This document shows positions 1,149-14,491 of a stretch of 14,491 nt of DNA, piece after piece. The stretch's first letter is position 1. Every line of letters starts with the position of its first letter. The notes under the pieces are model-generated. The model saw nothing but the letters and a program-made list of their open reading frames with translations. It ran no database searches and was not told where the DNA came from. The DNA is from a virus. Its lineage: Duplodnaviria; Heunggongvirae; Uroviricota; Caudoviricetes. The stretch lies in IMG/VR virus record IMGVR_UViG_2579778989_000010; one strand, 5' to 3'. The position numbers were made by a program, and so were the translations under genes.

Positions 1149-1442
1149 ATGGACAATCATGTAACGACGAGAAATCGAAAAATGATTGAAAATGCGGAAA
1201 TCTATAATGATTATTTTTCCGATTATTCAGATGCCTGCAAATACAGTTCGAGTGCGGGAGAGTTCATATGCTTCAACTTTTTTATTAAATCTTATGTTTT
1301 TCCTCCACTGCAAGAAGATGGAGGTGTGCCACCTCCTGAAATCACTTTGCACCGTATAGCCTCCGTCTCAATGATGGAGCAACAGGCTAATGAGCTGTAT
1401 AGCATTCTGGGAACGATTCTACAAAAGCGTGAATCGGACTAA
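1149..1442 (+). CDS. hypothetical protein (97 aa), AT-rich, divergent from com
   Basis: ATG preceded by AAGAGG Shine-Dalgarno about 6 nt upstream; followed by two hairpins; no recognisable domain. Confidence 0.5.
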   Translation: MDNHVTTRNRKMIENAEIYNDYFSDYSDACKYSSSAGEFICFNFFIKSYVFPPLQEDGGVPPPEITLHRIASVSMMEQQANELYSILGTILQKRESD

Positions 1443-1577: not shown

Positions 1578-1610
1578 AAACCGGCAGAGGACACCACCGG
1601 TTTGTATTGT
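1578..1610 (+). terminator. hairpin AAACCGG-(12 nt)-CCGGTTT followed by GTATTGT; weak candidate terminator between convergent genes
   Basis: 7-bp stem with a partly T-rich 3' flank on the plus strand; lies 3' of both 1149..1442(+) and 1610..1864(-). Confidence 0.3.
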
Positions 1611-1864
1611 TACATCATGGTACTGTCAGTTCCGGGCTGAGCCGGGTCTGGTTGCTCTGGCTGCGCGTCGGTTTTCGGCTCATTATCAGCATCACTGGCC
1701 GCAACTGCTGGCCCAATAAGTTTTGCCAGCACTTCATCAACGTAAGTGTCGATTTGTGCCTCAAAATCCTTGCGGACCTGCGCTTTCAGCAACTTATTTA
1801 CTTCACCGGAATACAGTGCCTGTTTTACCAGGTCTTCAGTGACGGTGCCTTTAATTTCTGGCAT
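1610..1864 (-). CDS. hypothetical small acidic protein (84 aa)
   Basis: ATG preceded by strong AAGGAGG Shine-Dalgarno; C-terminal half is Asp/Glu/Pro/Gln-rich; no recognisable domain. Confidence 0.55.
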   Translation of the reverse strand: MPEIKGTVTEDLVKQALYSGEVNKLLKAQVRKDFEAQIDTYVDEVLAKLIGPAVAASDADNEPKTDAQPEQPDPAQPGTDSTMM

Positions 1865-1899: not shown

Positions 1900-2082
1900 T
1901 CAGGGCTGGGTCGGGTCTTTTGGGAGCGGAGTTACCTGCGCTGTTTTACTGAGTTTTTCAGCTGCTGCGTCCTCAATTTTGCGGCGAACATAATTTCTGA
2001 TGGCCTTATAACCACCACTCACCAGATATAACGCACATACTGCCGTGCAGAAATACAATAAAATAAGCTGTAAAAATGTCAT
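1900..2082 (-). CDS. small membrane protein (60 aa): one N-terminal hydrophobic helix and a charged C-terminal tail
   Basis: ATG at 2082 preceded by GGGAGG Shine-Dalgarno about 5 nt upstream (the ORF track's start at 2094 has no RBS); MTFLQLILLYFCTAVCALYLVSGGY is a predicted transmembrane segment. Confidence 0.45.
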   Translation of the reverse strand: MTFLQLILLYFCTAVCALYLVSGGYKAIRNYVRRKIEDAAAEKLSKTAQVTPLPKDPTQP

Positions 2083-2178
2083 TATCCCTCCCAATTATTG
2101 ACATGGTGTTGACACCGGTAATATCTGTTAGGTAAAAAGGTGCACTGCATTTTTTGCTTTGGATATAACGATCTTTTT

Positions 2179-2226: not shown

Positions 2227-4281
2227 TTACGCGTTATTCACTTCCACCACGATACTGTCAATCAGTACCGGGTAAGTCGCATTTTTAGTGATATCGGTCA
2301 CGCGCAACTTGTCTGCCGTAAACGTGCCGACCGGAGACTGCGACAGCATGAATGGTGTCCCGTCCTTACCATCAATGACCGGCGTCACCTCAATACTGTT
2401 GTTACCGGCAAAACGGAAGCCCAGCGTATGCCATTCGTTATTAAATGCGCCGAATGACCCCAGCTTCGTGTTCTGCGCCGTGTTTCCTTTGTGATACATC
2501 ACGTTAAGGTCTGTGGCATCGCTCTGTACGTAGAACGATGCCAGCAGGTTATGACCGGCATTTCCTTCCAGAGTAACCCCTTGCGGCAGGGCAGAAACCG
2601 GCCAGTACAGCGCCAGTGCGTACTGATTAGCCGTAAGCGCGCCATCGAGTTTAAAACGACAACTGACAAGACCACCTTTACCCAGCAGGTCCGCACCATT
2701 ACCAGCATCATGCTCAAGGTACCAGGGGGCTCTTCCTGTTTCCTTGGTCAGTTTCATTGCCTTACCCCCGCTGGCTCCGGCATCATCCACGATTTGAGCC
2801 TTGCCACCTCCGGCAGCCCAACCCTGTGGTGTCAACCGTCCTTCAGACTCAGATGCCCGGTAAGCAAATAGCGTACTCATCGTCGTGGTGTCTGCGGGTG
2901 GCGTGGACGGTTTTGATGGTGTATCAGGTGACGGCTTCTCATCCGGTGGTGTCACGGTCTGCCCGCGCATCAGTTCAGCCGTGCGCCCTGCATGGAGCAT
3001 AATAGCTGAGGCCAGACGGTCTGAAATGACGCCCCTGCGTGCCCATGAGCTGAAATGGCTGTCACGCTGTGTCGAAACAAAACTGCCCTGGGTTCGGGAT
3101 GCTGCACCGTAATACCCGACAGCCACAATATCCGGGTCTTCCGCCGGAGCATTCGTTGGCGTGCTCTGTCCATTCTCATCCGTCAGGAACGGTACAAAGA
3201 AAATTTTCTGTGCTTCCTTGCCTTTGTAGCCACCGTATACTGCCTCATATTTATCGGTGCCAGCGTTTTTCCAGTAATACGTGGTATCACCGCAAATCCA
3301 CGGCACCGTGGTGGCATTTCCACTCACGCACTGCGCAGCAAGCGGAGCCAGGTCAGTTCTGAACTGCTGAACCATGGCCGTGAATAAACTATTATGCTGC
3401 TGGCTTCCTGAGGCAAGGTCTGCCTCTCCCTGCATCCAGACCACAGCCAGAAGTTTGTTTTTCGGGTTTTTCGCCAGCGCGACTTTGGTGCGGCTTACCA
3501 GGTCCTGATACAGAGGTTTACCGGCCCCCCAGCGTGAAGAATCAGCGGAAGCACCGCTGGCCTCACTGAATGAGCCGTCGGCTCCAGTGGTGAATGCTGA
3601 CCCGCCACGACAACAGGGCACCAGAAGTATCCCGGCATTCTGTGGGATATAGGGAAGCAGTTTTTTGGCAATATGCAACCCCTGACCGACAGTCCCGTAC
3701 TGGCCTTTTGCCAGATCAGCTTTCGGGTGGTTTATCCCGCTCATATCCTGAACATCATGCAGGCAGTGGTCTGCCGGAATGATGTCGTTGTATGTACACG
3801 ACGTACCGTTGGGCGTTACCGTACTGCGGCGTGCCAGTTGCTTAATGCGTGGGTCCGGGCGGTCAAACGAATCCGGTAACGGCAGCCCCTCGCCGTAGGC
3901 CATGCCATTTGACTGACCCGCGAGAATGACAACAAAGTAATATTCCGGCTCTGAACTGCTGCCATTCGTGCTACCGGAAGGCCCGGCGTTATCCGGTGCA
4001 TTCCAGTCGGAGGGCGTGAGCGTTCCGGCCACGTCAGATGTGATTGGAATGATGCCAGTCACGCCTGAACTGGTGATTTCTGCACTGGGATTACCGGATA
4101 CCGGCATTACCCATAATGGCTCTTTCGTGCTGAAGCGGATCACGCAGTCTGCGAAGGTGATCCCCCCTTTATTACCCGAAGGGCGGAAAGGGCTTTCAAT
4201 AAATGCCACCGTGCCACCGGCAACCTTGACTGAAAACTCTCCGGGCATGGCGGAGAGCATTTTCCACTTGGAGTCTGACAT
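2227..4281 (-). CDS. SASA/SGNH-family esterase (sialate O-acetylesterase-like; architecture resembles prophage NanS-p), 684 aa
   Basis: SGNH/SASA-like motifs in order: ILAGQSNGMAYG (block I GQSN), VWMQGEAD, RDSHFSSW (candidate DxxH block); N-terminal ~100 aa and C-terminal ~250 aa extra domains; Shine-Dalgarno is weak. Confidence 0.65.
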   Translation of the reverse strand: MSDSKWKMLSAMPGEFSVKVAGGTVAFIESPFRPSGNKGGITFADCVIRFSTKEPLWVMPVSGNPSAEITSSGVTGIIPITSDVAGTLTPSDWNAPDNAGPSGSTNGSSSEPEYYFVVILAGQSNGMAYGEGLPLPDSFDRPDPRIKQLARRSTVTPNGTSCTYNDIIPADHCLHDVQDMSGINHPKADLAKGQYGTVGQGLHIAKKLLPYIPQNAGILLVPCCRGGSAFTTGADGSFSEASGASADSSRWGAGKPLYQDLVSRTKVALAKNPKNKLLAVVWMQGEADLASGSQQHNSLFTAMVQQFRTDLAPLAAQCVSGNATTVPWICGDTTYYWKNAGTDKYEAVYGGYKGKEAQKIFFVPFLTDENGQSTPTNAPAEDPDIVAVGYYGAASRTQGSFVSTQRDSHFSSWARRGVISDRLASAIMLHAGRTAELMRGQTVTPPDEKPSPDTPSKPSTPPADTTTMSTLFAYRASESEGRLTPQGWAAGGGKAQIVDDAGASGGKAMKLTKETGRAPWYLEHDAGNGADLLGKGGLVSCRFKLDGALTANQYALALYWPVSALPQGVTLEGNAGHNLLASFYVQSDATDLNVMYHKGNTAQNTKLGSFGAFNNEWHTLGFRFAGNNSIEVTPVIDGKDGTPFMLSQSPVGTFTADKLRVTDITKNATYPVLIDSIVVEVNNA

Positions 4282-4366: not shown

Positions 4367-4939
4367 TCACGGTACTTTTGGTGACGGAGCTGGTGAGGCA
4401 GGAAAATAACGATAAAGGGTGGAAAGGCCAATATCAAATATCAGTGCGATTTGTTTACGGGACTCGCCATTAGCCAGCAAACGGGCGATTTGCTCCCGCT
4501 CTTTCTCTGTCAGTTTCTGAGGTCTGCCGCCATGACGCCCCTGAGCACGGGCAGCAGCAAGACCCGCGCGTGTACGTTCAATAATGAGTTCCCGCTCCAT
4601 TTCCGCCAGCGCGCCCATTATATGGAAAAAGAAACGTCCCATGGGAGTGGATGTATCAATATTGTCCGTAATGCTGCGGAAGTTAACGCCGCGTTGCCGG
4701 AGTTCTTCTGTTAAAAGGACAAGGTGCTGCATACTGCGTCCAAGGCGATCCAGTTTCCAGACCAGCAGGGTATCCCCTGGCCGGAGTCGCTTTAATGCGC
4801 GTTTAAGTCCGGGACGCTCCCTTGTCTTACCGCTTATTCTGTCTTCGAAAAACAGCTCACATCCTGCACATTCCAGCGCATTTCTTTGTAGCGCCGTATT
4901 CTGGTCATTTGTTGACACCCTGATATACCCAATCAGCAT
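4367..4939 (-). CDS. gin: Gin/Pin-family serine DNA invertase
   Basis: MLIGYIRVSTNDQNTALQRNAL...VWKLDRLGRSM...MGRFFFHIMGALAEMERELIIERT is near-identical in pattern to Mu Gin / e14 Pin (catalytic Ser in RVST); AAGGAA Shine-Dalgarno and a TATAAT-like hexamer upstream. Confidence 0.9.
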   Translation of the reverse strand: MLIGYIRVSTNDQNTALQRNALECAGCELFFEDRISGKTRERPGLKRALKRLRPGDTLLVWKLDRLGRSMQHLVLLTEELRQRGVNFRSITDNIDTSTPMGRFFFHIMGALAEMERELIIERTRAGLAAARAQGRHGGRPQKLTEKEREQIARLLANGESRKQIALIFDIGLSTLYRYFPASPAPSPKVP

Positions 4940-5429: not shown

Positions 5430-5951
5430 ATGGAACTAAAAAATATAACCCGTTATTATCCTGAAAATATGCCATATGGTAATAATGTTCAGTATTTCCA
5501 GAGTGAAGATGGTAAGGATTTCTACGAATCCCTGCCATTATTCACCAAAAAATATAAACTTTGCATAACACCTGACAGCGGCGTTATCTGCTCAATATCA
5601 CAGGACGCCTCGGCGCTGTATCCTGCGGGGTTTTCTGTGGTTGAGGTCGATGAACTCCCTGAAGGCACGGATATTTCAGGAAACTGGAAGTTTGATAATG
5701 GCATAATCTCCCGTATTCCGGTTAACTACGCAAGAAAACTGGAAGCAATGCGCCAGTCATATCTTAATCAGGCATATGAAAAAATTAATGACTGGAGAAC
5801 GGAGCTACAACTGGGCACCATCAGCGATGAAGACAGAGCAGCACTTACCCAATGGATGGCATACATCAGTCAGGTGAAGAAAATGGAACTACCCGCCATT
5901 AAAACAGAAGCTGAATTTAACGCCATTAAATGGCCTGAGCAGCCACAGTAA
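5430..5951 (+). CDS. tail fibre assembly protein (U'/Tfa family)
   Basis: AGGAGG Shine-Dalgarno; 173 aa; LGTISDEDRAALTQWMAYISQVKKM... ending WPEQPQ resembles Mu U/U' and other tail fibre assembly proteins. Confidence 0.8.
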   Translation: MELKNITRYYPENMPYGNNVQYFQSEDGKDFYESLPLFTKKYKLCITPDSGVICSISQDASALYPAGFSVVEVDELPEGTDISGNWKFDNGIISRIPVNYARKLEAMRQSYLNQAYEKINDWRTELQLGTISDEDRAALTQWMAYISQVKKMELPAIKTEAEFNAIKWPEQPQ

Positions 5952-5982: not shown

Positions 5983-6231
5983 TTATATACTTGCAGCCGT
6001 CACCCATGCTTCATTTAACAGATACTGCAACGGCCGGTAATACACGCCGCCGACGTTATCTGCCGTATTCTTACCGACATCCTGTACTTTAATTCCGGTA
6101 AGAACATTGCCGCCCCCCAGATTCAGATCCCAGCTTTCCCATGTTCCGGGCATATGTGCGGTCACCGACCCCAGTCTTATGGCGGTTAATGGCGTTTTCC
6201 CCGCCATCAGCGATAAAGCCCTGCCGGTGCA
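5983..6231 (-). pseudogene. start-less open frame of unknown origin, possibly a C-terminal remnant of a late (tail-fibre-related) gene left at the deletion junction
   Basis: Frame open for 82 codons from a stop at 6232-6234 with no upstream partner; overlaps the gemA-like ORF's 3' end in another frame; Gly/Asn/Val-rich like fibre C-termini. Weak. Confidence 0.25.
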
Positions 6232-6481
6232 TCACTTTCCAGATGGCGCGAATTTTGGCGGTCACCGTCCCCGGTTTTAAGGCCCGGTTAACCGGCTTCT
6301 GACGCACTTTAAAACCGCGTTTTTTGAAAACATCCAGCACGCGGGATAACTCATCCGGTGACATATCCCGGCAACTGGGTTTGCCGGTGGCTGCCAGTAG
6401 TACGGATGTGTAGGTCTCATGGTCAAGCTGTAGATCGCGTTTTGCGACATGTATTAAGGTAATCAGGGAAGCGCGATTCAT
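6089..6481 (-). CDS. gemA: GemA/gp16-like early protein (DUF1018-like); C-terminus probably altered by the deletion junction
   Basis: MNRASLITLIHVAKRDLQLD...GKPSCRDMS...KIRAIWKVMHRQGFIADGGENAIN matches the Mu-like gp16 pattern as I recall it; the last ~25 residues lose the expected pattern; GGAGA Shine-Dalgarno. Confidence 0.5.
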   Translation of the reverse strand: MNRASLITLIHVAKRDLQLDHETYTSVLLAATGKPSCRDMSPDELSRVLDVFKKRGFKVRQKPVNRALKPGTVTAKIRAIWKVMHRQGFIADGGENAINRHKTGVGDRTYARNMGKLGSESGGRQCSYRN

Positions 6482-6545
6482 TATCGTGTCTCCGTAACAA
6501 CAGGCGGCATGGCAACGCCGCCCGGATAAAACTAAAGGTATCGAT

Positions 6546-6956
6546 ATGAAAATAGATTACGATGAAGTATTAAGTATTCTCACAACTTTTCAGGATGCTG
6601 AAACACCTTTCCTTACACTACAGGATCTGGGCATGGCTGAGGCAGAAGGAGAGGAAAAGGATAAAAAAGTTTTTCATCTTATGCTTCTCGCTGATAATGG
6701 CTCAATTGTTAATGGTGATATGCAGTCAGAAACACCCAAATATATTGGTTTCTTTTTCCATTCTCTGGGCGTTGGTTTCAGAAACACGCCCATTATGCTT
6801 ACCCAGCAGGGGCATGATTTAGCTAACGCCCTGAGAAAAAAACCAATCCTTGAAAGAATCAAAAAGGAGTTTACAGACGCACCATTTGATCTAATTAAAG
6901 AAGTTACCAAATCAATGTTAACCAGGTTCGTCAAAGAACGTATTGGGATTGACTGA
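6546..6956 (+). CDS. hypothetical protein (136 aa), AT-rich, opposite strand to the early operon
   Basis: ATG with AAAGG Shine-Dalgarno; visibly more AT-rich than flanking genes; divergent from the gemA-like gene; 3' end overlaps the convergent gene 6918..7226 by 39 bp. Confidence 0.5.
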   Translation: MKIDYDEVLSILTTFQDAETPFLTLQDLGMAEAEGEEKDKKVFHLMLLADNGSIVNGDMQSETPKYIGFFFHSLGVGFRNTPIMLTQQGHDLANALRKKPILERIKKEFTDAPFDLIKEVTKSMLTRFVKERIGID

Positions 6957-7226
6957 ACAACTTAATTCAGCCAGTAATCGCAGGGCGGCGACAGCCGCCT
7001 GCTTGTCACTTCTTTTAGCTATTTCCGCAAGAGTATGCACAATCCATAACGGACTTAACGCCACGGCTGAATCCAGAATCATGTCATCCATAATAATTTC
7101 TGGCATATCCCGCTTGTCACATTCTTTATCCATAAAAGAAACGAATTTCTCTGCATCTTCCGGTTTCATGCCTCCGGCGATAAGGATTTTGCGATATTCA
7201 TAAGACGATCTTAATTCAATACTCAT
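6918..7226 (-). CDS. hypothetical protein (102 aa)
   Basis: ATG with AGGTGA Shine-Dalgarno 5 nt upstream, immediately after the TAA of the preceding gene. Confidence 0.5.
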   Translation of the reverse strand: MSIELRSSYEYRKILIAGGMKPEDAEKFVSFMDKECDKRDMPEIIMDDMILDSAVALSPLWIVHTLAEIAKRSDKQAAVAALRLLAELSCSVNPNTFFDEPG

Positions 7227-7241
7227 TATTCACCTGCCTGC

Positions 7242-7592
7242 TTAATCTGTTTCCAGTGCTTTGCTACGGGCTATAGCCTCACATTCAAAAAATACCGACT
7301 CCGGCACGCGCTCTTTTAATTCACGAACAAGGAAATCATTAACGCGTTCATGACGTCTTATATTTCTTTCCTTTTCCTCCTGGCGCAATACAGCAAGGCG
7401 GTATTCAACAGCCCGGCGTTGTTTCTGAAAGACAGCCAGTGCTTTTCTGGCAGCATTACGCCATGCATCATCGCCACATGGTGCGTATTCAAGCTGAAAT
7501 TTAATCTCTTCAATAGTTTCTTTGATTTTTGCCAGCAAGCTAAGACAGTCGCTTATTGTCTCCAGCTTTTCATTATCAATATAACTTCTCAC
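7242..7592 (-). CDS. hypothetical early protein (116 aa from GTG; charged, probably helical)
   Basis: GTG at 7592-7590 overlaps the upstream TGA (GTGA coupling); the ORF track's longer form from 7634 overlaps the upstream gene by 46 bp. Confidence 0.45.
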   Translation of the reverse strand: MRSYIDNEKLETISDCLSLLAKIKETIEEIKFQLEYAPCGDDAWRNAARKALAVFQKQRRAVEYRLAVLRQEEKERNIRRHERVNDFLVRELKERVPESVFFECEAIARSKALETD

Positions 7593-7918
7593 GCATTCAC
7601 CTCCCGTAATTCCGGTAAAGCCGAAATATGACACCAGTGCGTCACCTGTCCGTCTTCATCTTCAAGGCAGGCTCCGGTTTCTTCATCAACAAAAAAGCCT
7701 TCATACCCCATATGGCCGATGCGCAGCTCCTGACGGTGACCATACTGAACAATCAGCACGACAGCCTCCATATCAGGTGGGAAAGCATCATTCAGTGAAT
7801 GCCAGGGATAACCGCGTAAATCCCCGAAATAAACACCGGTCAGCGTTCCGCCACAGAGCGGCATTCCGGCGGCACACACAAGAGGTTCATCTGATTCAAC
7901 AAATAAGGTCGTTATCAT
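7589..7918 (-). CDS. hypothetical early protein (109 aa)
   Basis: ATG overlaps the upstream stop as ATGA; same strand and tight packing as the rest of the operon. Confidence 0.5.
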   Translation of the reverse strand: MITTLFVESDEPLVCAAGMPLCGGTLTGVYFGDLRGYPWHSLNDAFPPDMEAVVLIVQYGHRQELRIGHMGYEGFFVDEETGACLEDEDGQVTHWCHISALPELREVNA

Positions 7919-8466
7919 GGCGTTAACTCCCGTAATACAGCGTCCTCGGCAGTCCGGCGACGGTAATAAACTGCGTGAGCAGAATGTTCAGATATTCCAA
8001 ACTTTTCGCCAATTTCCCGGAATGACAGACGGCGTGGGTAATCGGAATCACGCAGCGCACGTATAAGACGTACATCATCATCAGATATGCGCGTGCCGGG
8101 GCGTAACTCTCCGCACTTTGTTAATCCAGCACCAATCATTCCTGCCCGACATCTGACAGAATCTTTATTACGTCCGAGATATTCTCCCATTTGCTGGCAG
8201 GTCATTGTTCTGGCATTTTTTCGAATAAACTTATCTTCATCAGGTGTAAATCTTGGGTGTTTATATTTCAGTAACTCCGGGTATGAACTGCGCAATACAC
8301 CAGTCCGGTTATATACAGCCCAGACAGTTCTTTTTATTCTGGCAGCAATATCCTTAACCGGGGTGGATGAATAAAGCGCAATCAGTAGCGCATCTTCTTC
8401 AGGTGTCCACGCGCGGACATGAGCGGGTGTACGACCTTTTCGCCCCATGTGTTGTAAAATCATCAT
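7915..8466 (-). CDS. putative DNA-binding protein with two Myb/SANT-like repeats and a C-terminal helix-turn-helix-like segment (183 aa)
   Basis: Repeats WTPEEDALLIALY...VWAVYNR and RFTPDEDKFIRKN...; C-terminal RLSFREIGEKFGISEHSAHAVYYRR; GGGGGTGA Shine-Dalgarno. Confidence 0.5.
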   Translation of the reverse strand: MMILQHMGRKGRTPAHVRAWTPEEDALLIALYSSTPVKDIAARIKRTVWAVYNRTGVLRSSYPELLKYKHPRFTPDEDKFIRKNARTMTCQQMGEYLGRNKDSVRCRAGMIGAGLTKCGELRPGTRISDDDVRLIRALRDSDYPRRLSFREIGEKFGISEHSAHAVYYRRRTAEDAVLRELTP

Positions 8467-8469
8467 ACA

Positions 8470-8985
8470 TCACCCCCTGACTCGCTTTTCGGCAGCATAA
8501 AACTCATCAGACAGAATTTCGGTCATTTTCCGTTTTGCGGAATCATCTTCGCACTGAAGATAAATCACATTGTCAACGCAGAACCAGTTCACGGGACCAT
8601 ACAATATTGCTGAGAAGTCAATACCCAGCCAGAACAACAGGGCATCGGTTCTGGCATACGTGACGGGCGAATATTCACGCCACAGACTGTTCAGTTCATC
8701 AGAGGCAACACGCAGGGCTTTAGGGATACGTGATGTGCGCGGTGTGCAGCTCCAGCCATTCGACGCAGTCGGTTTTCGCCATAAGTCGCGATGAAAAGGA
8801 TATTTGTCCTCCGTAAAACGCAGTCCCTTAAAACAAAAACCACTGATACTGAATTCAAATACCGACCGGCACGCAACATTCAGCACGGCCTCAAGGCGTT
8901 TCGCCTCATCTTTTACCGTCTGGCAGTCCTGCTGGTATTTTTGCCACGCAGCCAGCGCGGAAGGGTTTGATGTTTTAAAGAACAT
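8470..8985 (-). CDS. hypothetical early protein (171 aa)
   Basis: ATG overlaps the upstream TAA (TAATG); GGAGGTG Shine-Dalgarno. Confidence 0.5.
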   Translation of the reverse strand: MFFKTSNPSALAAWQKYQQDCQTVKDEAKRLEAVLNVACRSVFEFSISGFCFKGLRFTEDKYPFHRDLWRKPTASNGWSCTPRTSRIPKALRVASDELNSLWREYSPVTYARTDALLFWLGIDFSAILYGPVNWFCVDNVIYLQCEDDSAKRKMTEILSDEFYAAEKRVRG

Positions 8986-9518
8986 TACGCCACCTCCGCA
9001 GATATCCCGGCAGGCGCTGCTGTCCGGTCAACAATCAGGTAGCGCAGAACACGCGCGGTGATATTCCAGCCGCTTAAACCGCAGATGATGACACCCAGGC
9101 GAATGTCGATATACGCCATCACAAACTGGGGCACGCCTTCTTTCATGGCCTGCTCATCAACTTCAGCCACCACATAAACGGTTTCACAGGTCAGAACGCC
9201 CTGAGCAAATTCCCACGCCATCGACGGAATATCATGCCCCTCAATCCATGGCAGGGATTTTCTGAAGCTGCACCACTGAACATCATCAGCCGCAGATTCC
9301 TGTCTGCATTTGCGACGAATCGGCTGCACCGGGCGGGGACGCGGAATATCATAAAAACCGTTACATTCCGTCAGCACCCCGGCATCAACCGCATCACGCA
9401 GAAAATAAACCATGGAGGATGGCGGCATATTCATTTTTTCAGCCAGTACGCCGCAGGTCAGACGCCCGTAAATACTCAGCCAGTTTTTAACCCCTTCAAG
9501 CACTTTTGCATCAATCAT
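8985..9518 (-). CDS. hypothetical early protein (177 aa)
   Basis: ATG with GGAGGA Shine-Dalgarno; co-oriented and tightly packed. Confidence 0.5.
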   Translation of the reverse strand: MIDAKVLEGVKNWLSIYGRLTCGVLAEKMNMPPSSMVYFLRDAVDAGVLTECNGFYDIPRPRPVQPIRRKCRQESAADDVQWCSFRKSLPWIEGHDIPSMAWEFAQGVLTCETVYVVAEVDEQAMKEGVPQFVMAYIDIRLGVIICGLSGWNITARVLRYLIVDRTAAPAGISAEVA

Positions 9519-9521
9519 GAA

Positions 9522-10064
9522 TTATTCCTCCGTCAGCGCCACATATTCAGAATGTTTAATTTCCTGGCATTCTTCAGGAATACATCCGTTTATTTCCCTG
9601 CCATAAGCGCCCACTTTAAACACCACGCACAGGGCATCACGGGAGAACGAAGGGGTCCACCAGGAGTCCGTGTTAAACATGGAGGGGATTCTCATTACCC
9701 CCAGCTTTTCACAGAGCCAGACAAGGAAATCAGGACGCTTTCTTAACTCGCGTTCAGCGGCTTCAATCATTGCGGCAATCGCCGGTCCTTCAGGGCATGA
9801 CTCATCAGGTCTGGCTATAAAGCACTGTCCGCCACCGATAAAAGCCACATCATCGCGCTTACGCCAGCCCGCAGGCAGAGCACCGGCAAAATAAAACTCA
9901 CTGATTCTGTCCATGGCGAACGGCTTTAAGCGCAATCCGGCAGCGCCTGTATTTTTCAGTAATGTCCGAAGAATACTGTTGCGTAGCGGTAAAACAGCCT
10001 GTTGATATTTGGTGAAATATTTATTTGTCTGCACACGGTCTAATTTGAAATAAAAATATGCCAT
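9522..10064 (-). CDS. hypothetical early protein (180 aa)
   Basis: ATG with AAGGAA Shine-Dalgarno; preceded by an AT-rich ~100 bp spacer after gam. Confidence 0.5.
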   Translation of the reverse strand: MAYFYFKLDRVQTNKYFTKYQQAVLPLRNSILRTLLKNTGAAGLRLKPFAMDRISEFYFAGALPAGWRKRDDVAFIGGGQCFIARPDESCPEGPAIAAMIEAAERELRKRPDFLVWLCEKLGVMRIPSMFNTDSWWTPSFSRDALCVVFKVGAYGREINGCIPEECQEIKHSEYVALTEE

Positions 10065-10161
10065 ATTTCCGATTCCTTATTTTCAGCTTTCAGGCGCAAG
10101 CAGTCCCCTGACGCGAGCGCCATAATTAAAATGAAGTGATATTTAAATAATTAATGCGGTG

Positions 10162-10692
10162 TTATTTATTCAGTCCGGCATCCTGTTCAAAAGGCTCGAC
10201 ATAAAAACTTTCAGCGCCTTTATTCACCTTTATACCGGCAATGCCTTTCACCGCATCCGGCTCCGCCAGGACGGCTTCCTTGTTCACTTCCTCTTTCGTG
10301 CGGATGAATCGCTCAAGCCCCATACGGCGCAGCGTGTCAATCACACCTTCCACATCACGGCTGACGCTGCATGATGGCGTTCCCAGCCGCCATGACACCG
10401 TTCCGGTGGTCAGATTGGCAGTTTTGGTTTTGCCGCCGTTCGTCAGCTCATCACGGTTGGTTTTACACCAGTCCTGAATCCCTTTAAAAAGCACTTTGAT
10501 TTGCTTTTTAAGATTTTCAATCTGCGGCGTATAACGGGCGGTGATTTCTGCCACTTCATCATTCATCGCCGTTTCCAGGCGCAGCGCCTCTCGCTGAATA
10601 TCGCCCAGGGTGCGGATATCGCGGCTGACTTCTTCGCGGGTCTGCGGTGCGGCCTCGGCTACAGCCTTTAATTTTGTAACGCGTTTTGCCAT
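10162..10692 (-). CDS. gam: Gam host-nuclease inhibitor (Mu Gam / Ku-like DNA end-binding protein)
   Basis: RLETAMNDEVAEIT and NRDELTNGGKTKTANLTTGTVSWR...LERFIRTKEEVNKEA closely match my recollection of Mu Gam; 176 aa; AAGGA Shine-Dalgarno. Confidence 0.8.
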   Translation of the reverse strand: MAKRVTKLKAVAEAAPQTREEVSRDIRTLGDIQREALRLETAMNDEVAEITARYTPQIENLKKQIKVLFKGIQDWCKTNRDELTNGGKTKTANLTTGTVSWRLGTPSCSVSRDVEGVIDTLRRMGLERFIRTKEEVNKEAVLAEPDAVKGIAGIKVNKGAESFYVEPFEQDAGLNK

Positions 10693-10703
10693 TTTGTTTT
10701 TCC

Positions 10704-10997
10704 TTATTGCAATGTATCTGGTGCGTTCTGCAAGGAGCGGCGCTCAATGCTGCTTTTCACCCCCAGAGCCTGCATGGAACCCTGAAGTTCATCTGTCAGA
10801 AACTGAATAATTGTGGGGCTGTGATATTTAAGAATTTGCGCATAAACATCACATGGGCCTGTCGGTCTGTTCTCCGTATCACGTTCGATTTTTACAGTGG
10901 CAGTAACCCCCTCCGTGATTTCCTGACTATCATTACCGGCTGGCTTTACTTCATGCATTACGTGGTTAAATTCAAAAATAACGCGTACTTTGCTCAT
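10704..10997 (-). CDS. hypothetical early protein (97 aa from the internal ATG); N-terminal motif shared with the upstream gene
   Basis: ATG at 10997 has AGGGG Shine-Dalgarno; begins MSKVRVIFEFNHVMHEVK, paralleling MSKVVHIIFEYKEHVIHK of the neighbour. Confidence 0.45.
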   Translation of the reverse strand: MSKVRVIFEFNHVMHEVKPAGNDSQEITEGVTATVKIERDTENRPTGPCDVYAQILKYHSPTIIQFLTDELQGSMQALGVKSSIERRSLQNAPDTLQ

Positions 10998-12044: not shown

Positions 12045-12977
12045 TCACACCTGTGAGAGTAATTCAGGGTTGGTATAAACCTCTTTAAAGGCCGCATTAA
12101 TATGTTTTTCTGTCAGCGCCGCGCCTTCACCGCTGGCGGTGAGCCACGCCTGGTTAAGCGTATGTGTCAGAACGCGTAACGCTCCCGGCTTTTCAGCGAT
12201 AGCCTGCATGACGGCCAGCTCGGCCTCACCACTGATCCCCCACGCCATGGCAATGGCCAGCACATCCGCCTTTTTGGCCTTGCGAAGTTGTTTTGTACGG
12301 GCAAGACGGCTGAACAGGCGCGATAAATCATCAAAGGCGCGGCGTCCACCTTTAAACAATCCGCGCGGGTTACCAATAAGCACCATCCCGATCCCCGTGG
12401 CGTCCTGAATTGCCCGGAGTTGCTCCAGACCGTCAATACCAAGATGATCCGCCTCATCCACAATCACCAGTCCACGCGTTCCCATCAGGCGACGGCGGAT
12501 GGCGCGGGATAATGCCCCTTTGTTCGCGCGGGTGTAATCAATCCCCAGCGCATCGGCCAGCTCCAGCAGACACTCCGTGACGCTGGAGTGCGCGGGTGAC
12601 AGGGTGATCATCCAGGTGTTTGGTTGCTCCTGGCAGTAATTACGGGCAGTGGCCGTTTTACCCACACCCGGTACGCCCACAATAACGTTAATACAGCCCA
12701 TCAGGCGAACCGCCTGAAACAGTGCGCGCAGCTCCTGGACTGTCTGAGTTTCCACAAACTGCGGCGGTTCCGGCAGTGCGCTTTGTTTATTCCAGTTCTC
12801 ATACCAGGAGCGCAGGGAAGCAGCCACAGCAGCGTTATCGCCTTTATATTTTCCCTTACGGAAAGCCGATAATGTGCCGTCGGAAATTCCCGCCTCTCTG
12901 GCGATGGCATACTGCGTCAGTACGCCGCCATCAATAAGTTCATCAATGGTCTTGATTACATCGTTAATATCGGTCAT
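12045..12977 (-). CDS. B: MuB-like AAA+ ATPase (transposition target-DNA activator) with N-terminal HTH
   Basis: Walker A GVPGVGKT, VIVDEADHLG (Walker B), KPGALRVL, and N-terminal GISDGTLSAFRKGKYKGDN all parallel Mu B; ~310 aa versus 312 in Mu; GAGGTGA Shine-Dalgarno before ATG 12977. Confidence 0.85.
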   Translation of the reverse strand: MTDINDVIKTIDELIDGGVLTQYAIAREAGISDGTLSAFRKGKYKGDNAAVAASLRSWYENWNKQSALPEPPQFVETQTVQELRALFQAVRLMGCINVIVGVPGVGKTATARNYCQEQPNTWMITLSPAHSSVTECLLELADALGIDYTRANKGALSRAIRRRLMGTRGLVIVDEADHLGIDGLEQLRAIQDATGIGMVLIGNPRGLFKGGRRAFDDLSRLFSRLARTKQLRKAKKADVLAIAMAWGISGEAELAVMQAIAEKPGALRVLTHTLNQAWLTASGEGAALTEKHINAAFKEVYTNPELLSQV

Positions 12978-13059
12978 ATTATTCACCTCGCTTGAGACAG
13001 CATTCTCCGAGACTGAAACCTCAAATAACCTGAGTCACCCCTCGGGTTATTTTTTTATT

Positions 13060-14491
13060 TCAGGCCAGCGGATCACTTTCTTTTAATTTCGCTTCGAGCA
13101 ACTGCAATCCCCGCTGGAAATTACGCTCGTATTCTTCATCAGGTTCATCGTCAGCGACCGGTTGCTGAACGGTCACCGTATTACCCACAGGGCGGTATAT
13201 GTTTTCCAGCCAGGGCTCCTGCGGCTTGTGCTCCAGCACGTTGACAACCTCATCCTCGGCATCACGGATTTTTTCCTCTGCGCGTTTACGCATGCCTTTA
13301 AGGCGCTGCTGCTGTTTGTAGTATTCCGCGCTGACAGGGAAGGCTTCGCGTTTATTGCCGTCCCATATCCGAGTAATACAGAAACGGTTTGCCATGATGG
13401 CGAATACCGTGCTGTATGGCACCGGCTACGGCGAAAACATTTTCAGCCAGGTCAAGGCTCCAGCCCACCACAAAGCGCGTGCCACCGTCGATAACAAAGG
13501 TCACTTCCGGTGCGAATGGCCGCCCGTGAACCGGGTGCGCGCATTTCAGCTTCATGCCGTGACCGTCACCAATCCAGACATAATTCACCGGCATTCTGGA
13601 CCAGTCGCGGCGCGTGAATCCCTCAAGCTGACGGTATTCACTGCCAGTTACCCGGCCTTTTTGTTTCACCACTTCCGGCAGTTTCTTCATTGCGCGGCGA
13701 ATGGTGTCATAAGAGGGCATGATATCGAGCATATAAGGCTCATCAGCGTGCCGGTGCTGCCATTCAGCAACAAAATCCTCGTAAGCCTCGGTCATTGGTC
13801 GGCCGTTTGACTGGCGATACTGCGCCAGAAATTCGGGCAGCCAGTTAATATCTTCGGCTTTTATTTCCTGGCGTTTACCCGGTGCCAGTAAAAGCAGGCG
13901 TTCAGCGGCGTTCTGTGCCTTGTTAAAGGCCGCAATCCAGCGTTTCAGCGTGATTTCACTCAACGCGCGGCTGTTTCCCTTTTTGGCGTTCGCCGTCTCA
14001 ACCATTGCCACAATGCGCTCGTCCAGTTGTGATCGTGCCAGGCTGTTAACGAGGAACCGGATAGCCTTAGCGCAACTAAAGCCGGGTTGTTGCGCGATTT
14101 TCAGCACCTCGCTGACGATCGCTATTCGTGCCTCTGCCACTTTACGTTGGTTTTCAGTCAGGGCATTGAGGCGTTCGACCATCAGTTGGGGTGATCCGCG
14201 ATATGCCTCCACCGCATCAACCACGGCAGGTGAGCGTCTGGCCTTTGTCACCACCGGAGCCGGTGATTCATCGGCTTTTTGCGTCATCAGTTGCAGGGCG
14301 TAGCGTTCACGTAATGCCTGCTGCGTCACTTCAGGTAAACAGTCGATGCTGTATTCAGTTGCTTTAGAGCCTGAGCGACGACGGGAACAACAGCTTTTCC
14401 CTTGTACGTAACGTTGTAATGCCTGGCGAATACCTTTTGTTGTAGCAGGCATTCCGGGCGCGCCAATCAGTTCTTTTGCAATGACATACAT
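13060..14491 (-). pseudogene. A: MuA-like DDE transposase, 5' end at or beyond the window edge, disrupted by an internal deletion and frame change near 13340-13430
   Basis: N-terminal 379-aa frame aligns with MuA from the N-terminal DNA-binding region through the first two catalytic Asp regions (NYVWIGDGHG..., FLYYSDMGRQ) and then hits a stop at 13352; a second frame (13060..13422) encodes the MuA C-terminus (EYYKQQQRLK..., PVGNT..., DDEPDEEYE). About 200 residues including the catalytic Glu are absent. Confidence 0.7.

Follow-up and report, generated by a model that had tools for sequence, protein, structure and literature searches.

What does a small basic protein made of repeated helical units do in the early region of a transposable phage? 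The question arises at a 183-aa gene in a caudoviral DNA of 14,491 nt (IMG/VR record IMGVR_UViG_2579778989_000010), the whole of which is here called the window. The original prediction had noticed two W/F-TP-EED repeats and a C-terminal HTH-like segment in this early-region protein, and proposed a DNA-binding regulator, or perhaps a host-takeover factor, with tandem Myb/SANT-like repeats. The SANT/Myb-like annotation in RefSeq and the family in PHROGs are already known. New here are the description as three modules, the relationship to GcrA and Cbp, the link to Mu gp9, the mosaic pattern of alleles with variable recognition helices, and the recurrent methyltransferase neighbourhood in P2-like prophages.

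The locus in a Mu-like prophage

The window comes from a transposable, Mu-like prophage in E. coli, with a series of minus-strand genes from a MuA transposase fragment to a truncated GemA (Table 1). The feature proposed originally coincides exactly with one minus-strand ORF of 183 aa. Between this gene and the truncated GemA are three small genes of unknown function, also on the minus strand. RefSeq holds the identical protein as WP_000973019.1 under the name "SANT/Myb-like DNA-binding domain-containing protein" and calls the same 552-nt CDS in E. coli JKHS016, with which the window is 100% identical over 7400-9000. DNA related to this stretch is found in 232 of 5,426 complete E. coli genomes.

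Table 1. Positions of the 183-aa gene, its parts and its neighbours in the window
Feature	Position	Strand	Evidence or remark
MuA transposase fragment	13352-14491	-	
MuB	12045-12986	-	
Gam	10162-10692	-	Pfam Phage_Mu_Gam, 7e-42
gp11 homologue	8985-9518	-	Gp11_C 4.6e-40; 67% identical to Mu gp11
gp12 homologue	8470-8985	-	52% identical to Mu gp12
Shine-Dalgarno AGGGGG, 6 nt upstream of the ATG at 8466	8473-8478	-	Read from sequence
CDS, 183 aa, pI 10.0, predicted three-module Myb/GcrA-type HTH protein	7915-8466	-	ORF list, RefSeq, PHROG 323
N-terminal basic tail, aa 1-15, net charge about +3 to +4, predicted disordered	8422-8466	-	AF2 pLDDT below 50
Module R1, aa 20-59, W20-TPEED, predicted helices 22-32, 37-44, 48-59	8290-8409	-	AF2
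Module R2, aa 73-111, F73-TPDED, predicted helices 75-84, 90-97, 101-111	8134-8250	-	AF2
Linker motif K117-C-G119-E/D ('KCGD') between R2 and R3	8107-8118	-	Alignment
Module R3, aa 127-169, diverged third unit, generic three-helix HTH	7960-8088	-	AF2
C-terminal helix, aa 173-181, after R170 and T172	7924-7950	-	AF2, alignment
ATGA overlap of the 183-aa gene's TGA (7915-7917) and the downstream ATG (7916-7918)	7915-7918	-	Sequence, ORFs
Truncated GemA	6089-6481	-	

The 183-aa gene is closely packed between its neighbours. The gp12-like upstream gene ends with a TGA (8470-8472) 3 nt before its ATG, and the gene directly downstream, of 109 aa and PHROG 6925, starts within its stop codon. This ATGA stop/start overlap indicates translational coupling of the two genes. 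By its sequence layout, the 183-aa gene is an internal and apparently coupled cistron of the prophage's long early operon. Compared with the O157:H7 allele it has dN 0.160, dS 0.667 and dN/dS 0.24, which marks it as a constrained coding gene.

Two antisense ORFs on the plus strand within the gene (7917-8066 and 8087-8374) were set aside, being annotated nowhere and opposite a constrained gene. A promoter and terminator scan of 6000-10800 gave signals at or below chance, and Rfam had no match in the whole window. Neither the 183-aa protein nor its neighbours matched the PADLOC defence models, and NCBIfam had no match for the protein.

The window's prophage is defective, as its identity to intact relatives ends at about position 6182. 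Near this position the truncated gemA is fused to a tail-fibre fragment. Also present are a tail-fibre assembly gene (5430-5951, plus strand), a Gin-type invertase gene (4367-4939), a gene of a 684-aa SASA-esterase/DUF6645 protein (2227-4281), DUF1378 and DUF826 genes, com and mom. The same late region bears another deletion in strain JMF1, one associated with IS903B.

Three modules and their solved relatives

AF2 with the family alignment predicts three separate three-helix modules with pLDDT of about 81-92. The model does not fix how the modules are oriented towards one another (pTM 0.45), because they sit on flexible linkers. It bundles three helices in each module of about 50 aa, helices 2 and 3 forming an HTH, and the modules stand in tandem as in the Myb/SANT fold. 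Structure prediction and HMM searches had been proposed as checks on the DNA-binding reading. They give a predicted helical-bundle DNA-binding fold and profile matches to Myb, and both favour that reading.

The two W/F-TP-EED repeats are present, one opening R1 and the other R2. Self-alignment of the single 183-aa sequence detects an internal repeat with weak significance (z = 2.8, p about 0.02). When slices of an 18-sequence family alignment are compared by hhalign, R1 matches R2 at 97.6% and E 4e-12. On these slices the two modules are clearly homologous, and they match a broad unit profile with probabilities of 99.1% (R1) and 99.4% (R2).

The C-terminal HTH-like segment is modelled as a three-helix HTH (helices 129-140, 149-156 and 160-169; pLDDT 81-90), and its first two helices carry DVxLIRxLRD ... 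LTFREIGEKF. This segment with the preceding linker aligns in register with the broad unit profile (92.6%, E 4.5e-7; 0.6% for the reversed control). The HTH families Sigma70_r4, HTH_AsnC-type, HTH_38, HTH_7 and CENP-B gave R3 sub-threshold matches only. Assignment of R3 to one specific HTH family was rejected, since no Pfam cutoff was passed. From the model and the profiles together, the protein is best described as three predicted tandem units, the third being diverged. The repeats and the HTH of the original prediction stand, but its generic HTH gives way to a third unit and its Myb kinship to a closer one with GcrA.

The likeness to Myb is nonetheless significant at the profile level. Among 177,635 PDB sequences, a 28-sequence family profile matches c-Myb R2R3 (1h88_C) with E 8.7e-8, and c-Myb R2-R3 lie in register with the phage R1-R2 at a repeat period of about 53 aa. 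A 47-sequence single-unit profile matches c-Myb at 1.9e-10, TvMyb3 of T. vaginalis at 6e-10, Cbp2 at 4.4e-9 and GcrA at about 1e-6. A phmmer search of PDB with the single 183-aa sequence gave nothing below E 0.087. In Pfam, PF00249 scores 25.2 bits against a gathering cutoff of 24.4, on the single stretch of aa 19-33 only, and PF13921 scores 17.5 bits against 22.9. Across relatives PF00249 scores 24.4 bits in P0023, 16.7 in P0025 and up to 140 in the array proteins.

Helix 1 opens with W/F-T-x-E-E-D in both the phage protein and Myb, which also share the fold and the IA..L.GR stretch before helix 3. Myb has three spaced tryptophans in each repeat, whereas R1 and R2 keep only the first position (W20 and F73). 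The second is V37 in R1 and falls at an insertion in R2, and the third is T55 in R1 and A108 in R2. Moreover, the base-contacting residues of Myb are not conserved in the phage protein.

The closest solved relative is bacterial GcrA rather than eukaryotic Myb. GcrA reads m6A-GANTC sites, helix 3 of its DNA-binding domain (DBD) enters the major groove, and its C-terminal domain has a CCCH zinc finger (C-X14-C-X9-C-X2-H) and binds sigma-70 (PMC5887438). The phage modules have the features of the GcrA-type N-terminal HTH DNA-binding domain. They were aligned with a GcrA sequence that agrees with the 14 residue identities listed in PMC5887438, and keep its backbone contacts: W3 corresponds to W20/F73, K39 to R54/R107 and T32 to T47. 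Its base contacts R33, N34, I37, H41 and R42 are conserved at none of the five positions in R1 (V48, W49, Y52, G56, V57) or R2 (K101, D102, R105, G109, M110).

The architectures differ as well. GcrA has one DBD and a zinc-finger domain, whereas the phage protein has three DBD-like modules and no zinc-finger domain. Its only cysteines are C90, C106 and C118, with a spacing unlike that of the GcrA CCCH, and it has no match to PF07750 (GcrA family).

The closest architectural likeness outside phages is to archaeal Cbp1 and Cbp2. These are small basic proteins of two or three imperfect homeodomain-like HTH repeats with linkers that bind specific DNA repeats (PMC3597662). The phage protein, too, is small and basic and consists solely of linked HTH repeats, and Cbp2 (PDB 2lvs) is matched by the family profile at E 1.4e-5 as well as by the unit profile. 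However, Cbp1 and Cbp2 are chromosomal and target CRISPR repeats.

Homologues with 73% identity carry the label 'AsnC family protein'. AsnC/Lrp membership was rejected, as R3 scores 19.8 bits against 27 for HTH_AsnC-type, the RAM/ACT-like ligand-binding domain PF01037 has no match and the AF2 model is without a beta-rich domain. On profiles and predicted fold, the label is a misnomer for these homologues, and the present analysis corrects this misleading database name.

Distribution, contexts and variation of the family

The protein matches PHROG 323 ('transcriptional regulator, D5-like') with E 5.8e-52 and 178 bits, its aa 5-182 aligning with positions 82-256 of the 319-position profile. T5 D5 was considered as the origin of the 'D5-like' name and dropped, as tblastn searches gave no T5 match. 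A profile search of 1.84 billion representative proteins gave 8,653 matches at E <= 1e-3, the weaker of which may be generic Myb/HTH proteins, with 1,590 at E <= 1e-10 and 88 at E <= 1e-30. The original prediction took Myb-like repeats to be uncommon in phage early regions. That premise fails against the RefSeq name, PHROG 323, these 8,653 proteins and Mu gp9.

The unit also occurs in longer forms. Among 169 proteins retrieved, 46 have two recognisable canonical units, mostly in the three-module form of about 180 aa, and about 120 carry the unit in arrays of 5-13 copies. Fusion partners of some arrays are ResIII/DEAD helicases (P0024, P0114), an HNH_3 endonuclease (P0104), a LAGLIDADG endonuclease (P0120) and DUF2726 (P0164). 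Cluster-J mycobacteriophages have the units inside a C5-cytosine methylase gene; in Hannaconda gp107, Myb/GcrA-type units directly follow the N-terminal catalytic half of the methylase. A viral structure library holds many similar uncharacterised phage proteins, including several in the jumbo phage Goslar and endonuclease fusions.

Other relatives in PHROG 323 or akin to it, such as a 'Myb-like domain-containing protein' of Goslar, gp65 of Listeria phage B054 and a G7C-like 'transcriptional regulator', are built from the same unit of 47-53 aa. Many of these tandem-array relatives have 5-13 units or fused enzyme domains, whereas the 183-aa protein stands alone with three modules and a distinctive, conserved KCGD linker and R3. 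The Myb/GcrA/Cbp-type unit hence appears as a widespread modular phage element, either by itself or fused to nucleases, helicases and methylases.

A relative is also present in phage Mu. When Mu early proteins were searched by hmmsearch, gp9 (E8, NP_050613, 99 aa) matched family profile positions 64-164, namely R2-linker-R3, with 48.2 bits, and it is named as PHROG 323 in the phage record. It has two modules and lacks R1, whereas the 183-aa protein has three. Both genes are in the semi-essential early region of a transposable phage, but gp9 sits upstream of gam and the 183-aa gene follows the homologues of gp11 and gp12. The Mu genes at the syntenic place, gp13 and gp14, were considered as homologues and proved unrelated. 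No paper on the family was found in the literature, Mu gp9 included. A fold and a probable activity can now be proposed for this unstudied gene in the semi-essential early region of Mu and for its three-module relative.

From 19 viral contigs and individual look-ups, the three-module form is found in Mu-like, P2-like and lambdoid-type temperate phages of enterobacteria. In the Mu-like prophages, the gene invariably has the gp12 homologue on one side and a changing set of small genes on the other. In the P2-like ones, it belongs to the early operon and lies upstream of gpA, the replication gene. In a lambdoid-type prophage, it is flanked by a Lar restriction-alleviation gene on one side and Ash/pRha antirepressor-like genes on the other. 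Since none of the neighbours recurs in all three contexts, the protein probably acts independently. The family consists of mobile accessory genes of temperate-phage early regions.

The architecture of about 180 aa and three modules is kept from 100% down to about 33% identity across these phages, and each of the 28 family members examined is basic, with a pI of 9.2-10.3. The 28-sequence family alignment shows W20 to be invariant, K117 and G119 are likewise invariant across the family alignments, and R170 and T172 are nearly so. The most conserved parts are R3 helices 1-2 and the KCGD linker, and the whole R2-R3 linker is among the least variable segments. In each module, helix 3 is the most variable element within the family. 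For R3, its entropy in the 18-sequence alignment is 1.68 bits, compared with 0.32 for helix 1 and 0.16 for helix 2.

The alleles form a mosaic. Between the window and a closely related Mu-like prophage, the 183-aa protein is 73% identical with dS 0.67, whereas the flanking genes of the same pair are 91-97% identical in amino acids with dS 0.11-0.19. The gene is far more diverged than every flanking gene, which indicates allele or cassette replacement by recombination.

Candidate roles

With moderate confidence, we regard the protein as a small basic monomeric binder of double-stranded DNA whose three modules read an extended site, encoded by an early-operon cistron and related to the shorter Mu gp9. 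We infer DNA binding, monomeric multi-module reading and a regulatory role rather than a structural or enzymatic one. In the proposed mechanism, basic linkers connect three tandem Myb/SANT-GcrA-Cbp-type HTH modules in a monomer, and each module would place helix 3 in the DNA major groove like GcrA and the Myb repeats. Their combined site would extend over roughly 15-20 bp. Scaffold and backbone-contact positions are kept in the protein, and the recognition helices differ from allele to allele.

Helicases, homing endonucleases and methylases need a DNA-targeting domain. The use of the unit as the non-catalytic portion of such enzymes, namely of homing endonucleases, of helicases and of a methylase, is the strongest indirect evidence for sequence-specific DNA binding. 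Since the recognition helices vary between alleles, the alleles probably prefer different sequences. If these helices set the specificity, the family could be of use as a natural set of small monomeric multi-module DNA readers. Alternatively, their variability could mean relaxed constraint and non-specific binding.

The non-specific alternative is that the protein coats DNA, or recognises its structure, and remodels the nucleoid for host takeover or for transposition and replication, with no defined operator. High positive charge throughout the protein, including the linkers and the N-terminal tail, and the poor conservation of the recognition helices would suit this. So would the position of the gene in the semi-essential early region of Mu near Gam and other host-directed functions, and its movement between unrelated phage backbones, which is contrary to a backbone-specific operator. 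We nevertheless hold it to be unlikely. The relatives that serve as targeting domains of homing endonucleases imply sequence-specific recognition, and GcrA, Myb and Cbp2 are all sequence-specific binders. Moreover, the replacement of alleles with a divergent helix 3 resembles diversification of specificity.

A link to DNA methylation is suggested by the company of the P2-like homologues. A D12-class Dam methyltransferase gene is upstream in 8 of the 9 distinct P2-like loci; in one of them (L027) the homologue's start and the methyltransferase stop share 4 nt, and in another (L029) the two reading frames share 22 nt. The gene immediately after the L027 homologue encodes a PAPS-reductase-domain (DndC-like) protein. 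These neighbours, with the m6A-reading GcrA as the closest solved fold, the units in the Hannaconda methylase gene and the Lar gene upstream in the lambdoid prophage, would fit a protein that senses or directs adenine methylation, or a specificity or control factor of a phage methyltransferase.

This role is quite unlikely, however. No methyltransferase adjoins the 183-aa gene in the Mu-like context of the window, and Shae_phiSM carries the gene with no Dam match. The P2-like synteny may reflect vertical inheritance in one lineage. Since methylases and anti-restriction genes are generally abundant in phage early accessory regions, the adjacency could plausibly arise by chance, and the five base-contacting residues of GcrA are unconserved in R1 and R2. 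If the linkage were functional, methylation-dependent regulation of the GcrA kind would extend to enterobacterial phages.

In a bolder form, the protein would be a phage-borne counterpart of GcrA that couples the DNA-methylation state to phage development, either as a reader or as a specificity or control subunit of a methyltransferase. This would explain at once the Dam coupling in P2-like prophages, the insertion in the C5-methylase and the allele-like diversification of the recognition helices. We give it a slim chance.

The favoured DNA-reading account leaves one feature uncovered. The most conserved surface, R3 helices 1-2 with the KCGD linker, is not the predicted DNA-reading helix, which may point to a partner or function that is itself conserved. 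SANT-type domains are able to bind proteins instead of DNA, and the modules could contact a host protein such as sigma-70/RNAP as a SANT-like or polymerase-directed adaptor. The weak whole-chain Foldseek matches are indeed sigma factors, but they are not significant (E > 0.1), and the sigma-interacting CCCH zinc-finger domain of GcrA is absent. The charge and the fusion partners indicate DNA, and such an adaptor is very improbable.

Finally, a functionless and decaying remnant, for example a DNA-binding domain left over from a former homing endonuclease or methylase, might be supposed from the related units being domains of larger enzymes and from the defective state of the window's prophage, but the chance of this is close to negligible, as the purifying selection (dN/dS 0.24) and the three-module architecture conserved down to about 33% identity in three phage types contradict it, and the Shine-Dalgarno sequence is intact with apparent translational coupling to the neighbours.

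Prophage decay and the retained early region

The prophage in the window is defective. Its identity to the intact relatives, the E. coli genome JKHS016 and others, starts only at about 6182, within a region (5983-6481) where the C-terminal fragment of a tail-fibre gene is fused to a truncated gemA. The Pfam GemA match in this truncated ORF covers just 87 of the 119 profile positions. The prophage lacks the whole stretch that runs from mor through the lysis, head and tail genes up to the tail-fibre gene.

Features around the decay junction, in the early operon and between gin and com/mom
Feature	Coordinates	Strand	Remark
97-aa ORF	1149-1442	+	family unannotated; between esterase and com-mom, on the strand opposite to the DUF826 and DUF1378 genes
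DUF826 gene	1610-1864	-	small; between esterase and com-mom
DUF1378 gene	1900-2094	-	small; between esterase and com-mom
SASA-esterase/DUF6645 ORF	2227-4281	-	684 aa; between gin and com/mom
Tail-fibre C-terminal fragment	5983-6207		fused to truncated gemA
gemA ORF, truncated	6089-6481		130 aa vs 170 aa
DUF2513-like gene	6546-6956	+	inside the otherwise unidirectional early operon

The same late region has suffered an independent deletion in E. coli JMF1 (L032 6483-8560), where an IS903B transposase abuts a tail-fibre gene at the deletion boundary and the remnant keeps the early region together with its Myb-like gene. The comparison suggests that the early region and com-mom are repeatedly kept as a remnant.

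Accessory genes of the window prophage

The opposite-strand gene in the early operon carries the RefSeq name DUF2513, and its Pfam DUF2513 score is below the threshold (23.6 vs 29.6 bits). It and the 6918-7226 gene overlap at their 3′ ends over about 39 nt.

The long ORF between gin and com/mom has a carbohydrate esterase domain of the SASA (sialic-acid-specific acetylesterase) type at its N-terminus and DUF6645 (7e-68) at its C-terminus. In phage Mu this position holds no gene. The ORF may be a moron that modifies surface glycans, or it may encode an enzyme associated with the tail.

Myb-like genes and units in other phages and prophages

The label 'transcriptional regulator, D5-like' is shared by Mu gp9 (L003 5482-5781), Listeria B054 gp65 and PHROG 323, the profile family of the Myb-like protein. 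Our search for its source found no characterised D5 protein behind the name, and T5 records were absent from the matches of both tblastn searches.

In two divergent P2-like prophages (L027 6060-8544 and L029 4993-7471), the early operon runs from a D12-class Dam methyltransferase gene through the three-module Myb-like gene and that of a PAPS-reductase-domain (DndC-like) protein to gpA, the first two overlapping by 4 or 22 nt. The three genes upstream of the replication gene look like a compact cassette with a flavour of DNA modification.

In Hannaconda gp107 (L031 2007-3530), a 507-aa mycobacteriophage protein named 'DNA methylase', only aa 4-179 align with the C5 DNA_methylase model of Pfam, to positions 2-172 of its 324. 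Its Myb/GcrA-like units, at about aa 165-272, occupy roughly the place expected for the target-recognition domain.

P0024, P0027, P0045, P0048 and other profile-search homologues repeat the 47-aa unit in very long tandem arrays, in which as many as 13 copies were recognised in a single protein. Fusions with helicase, HNH, LAGLIDADG or DUF2726 domains occur in some arrays, and many have in common a conserved domain of about 140 aa at the C-terminus that carries no annotation (motif '...NQNIWDSR.LE.N..G.EP.WL.EKR..D').
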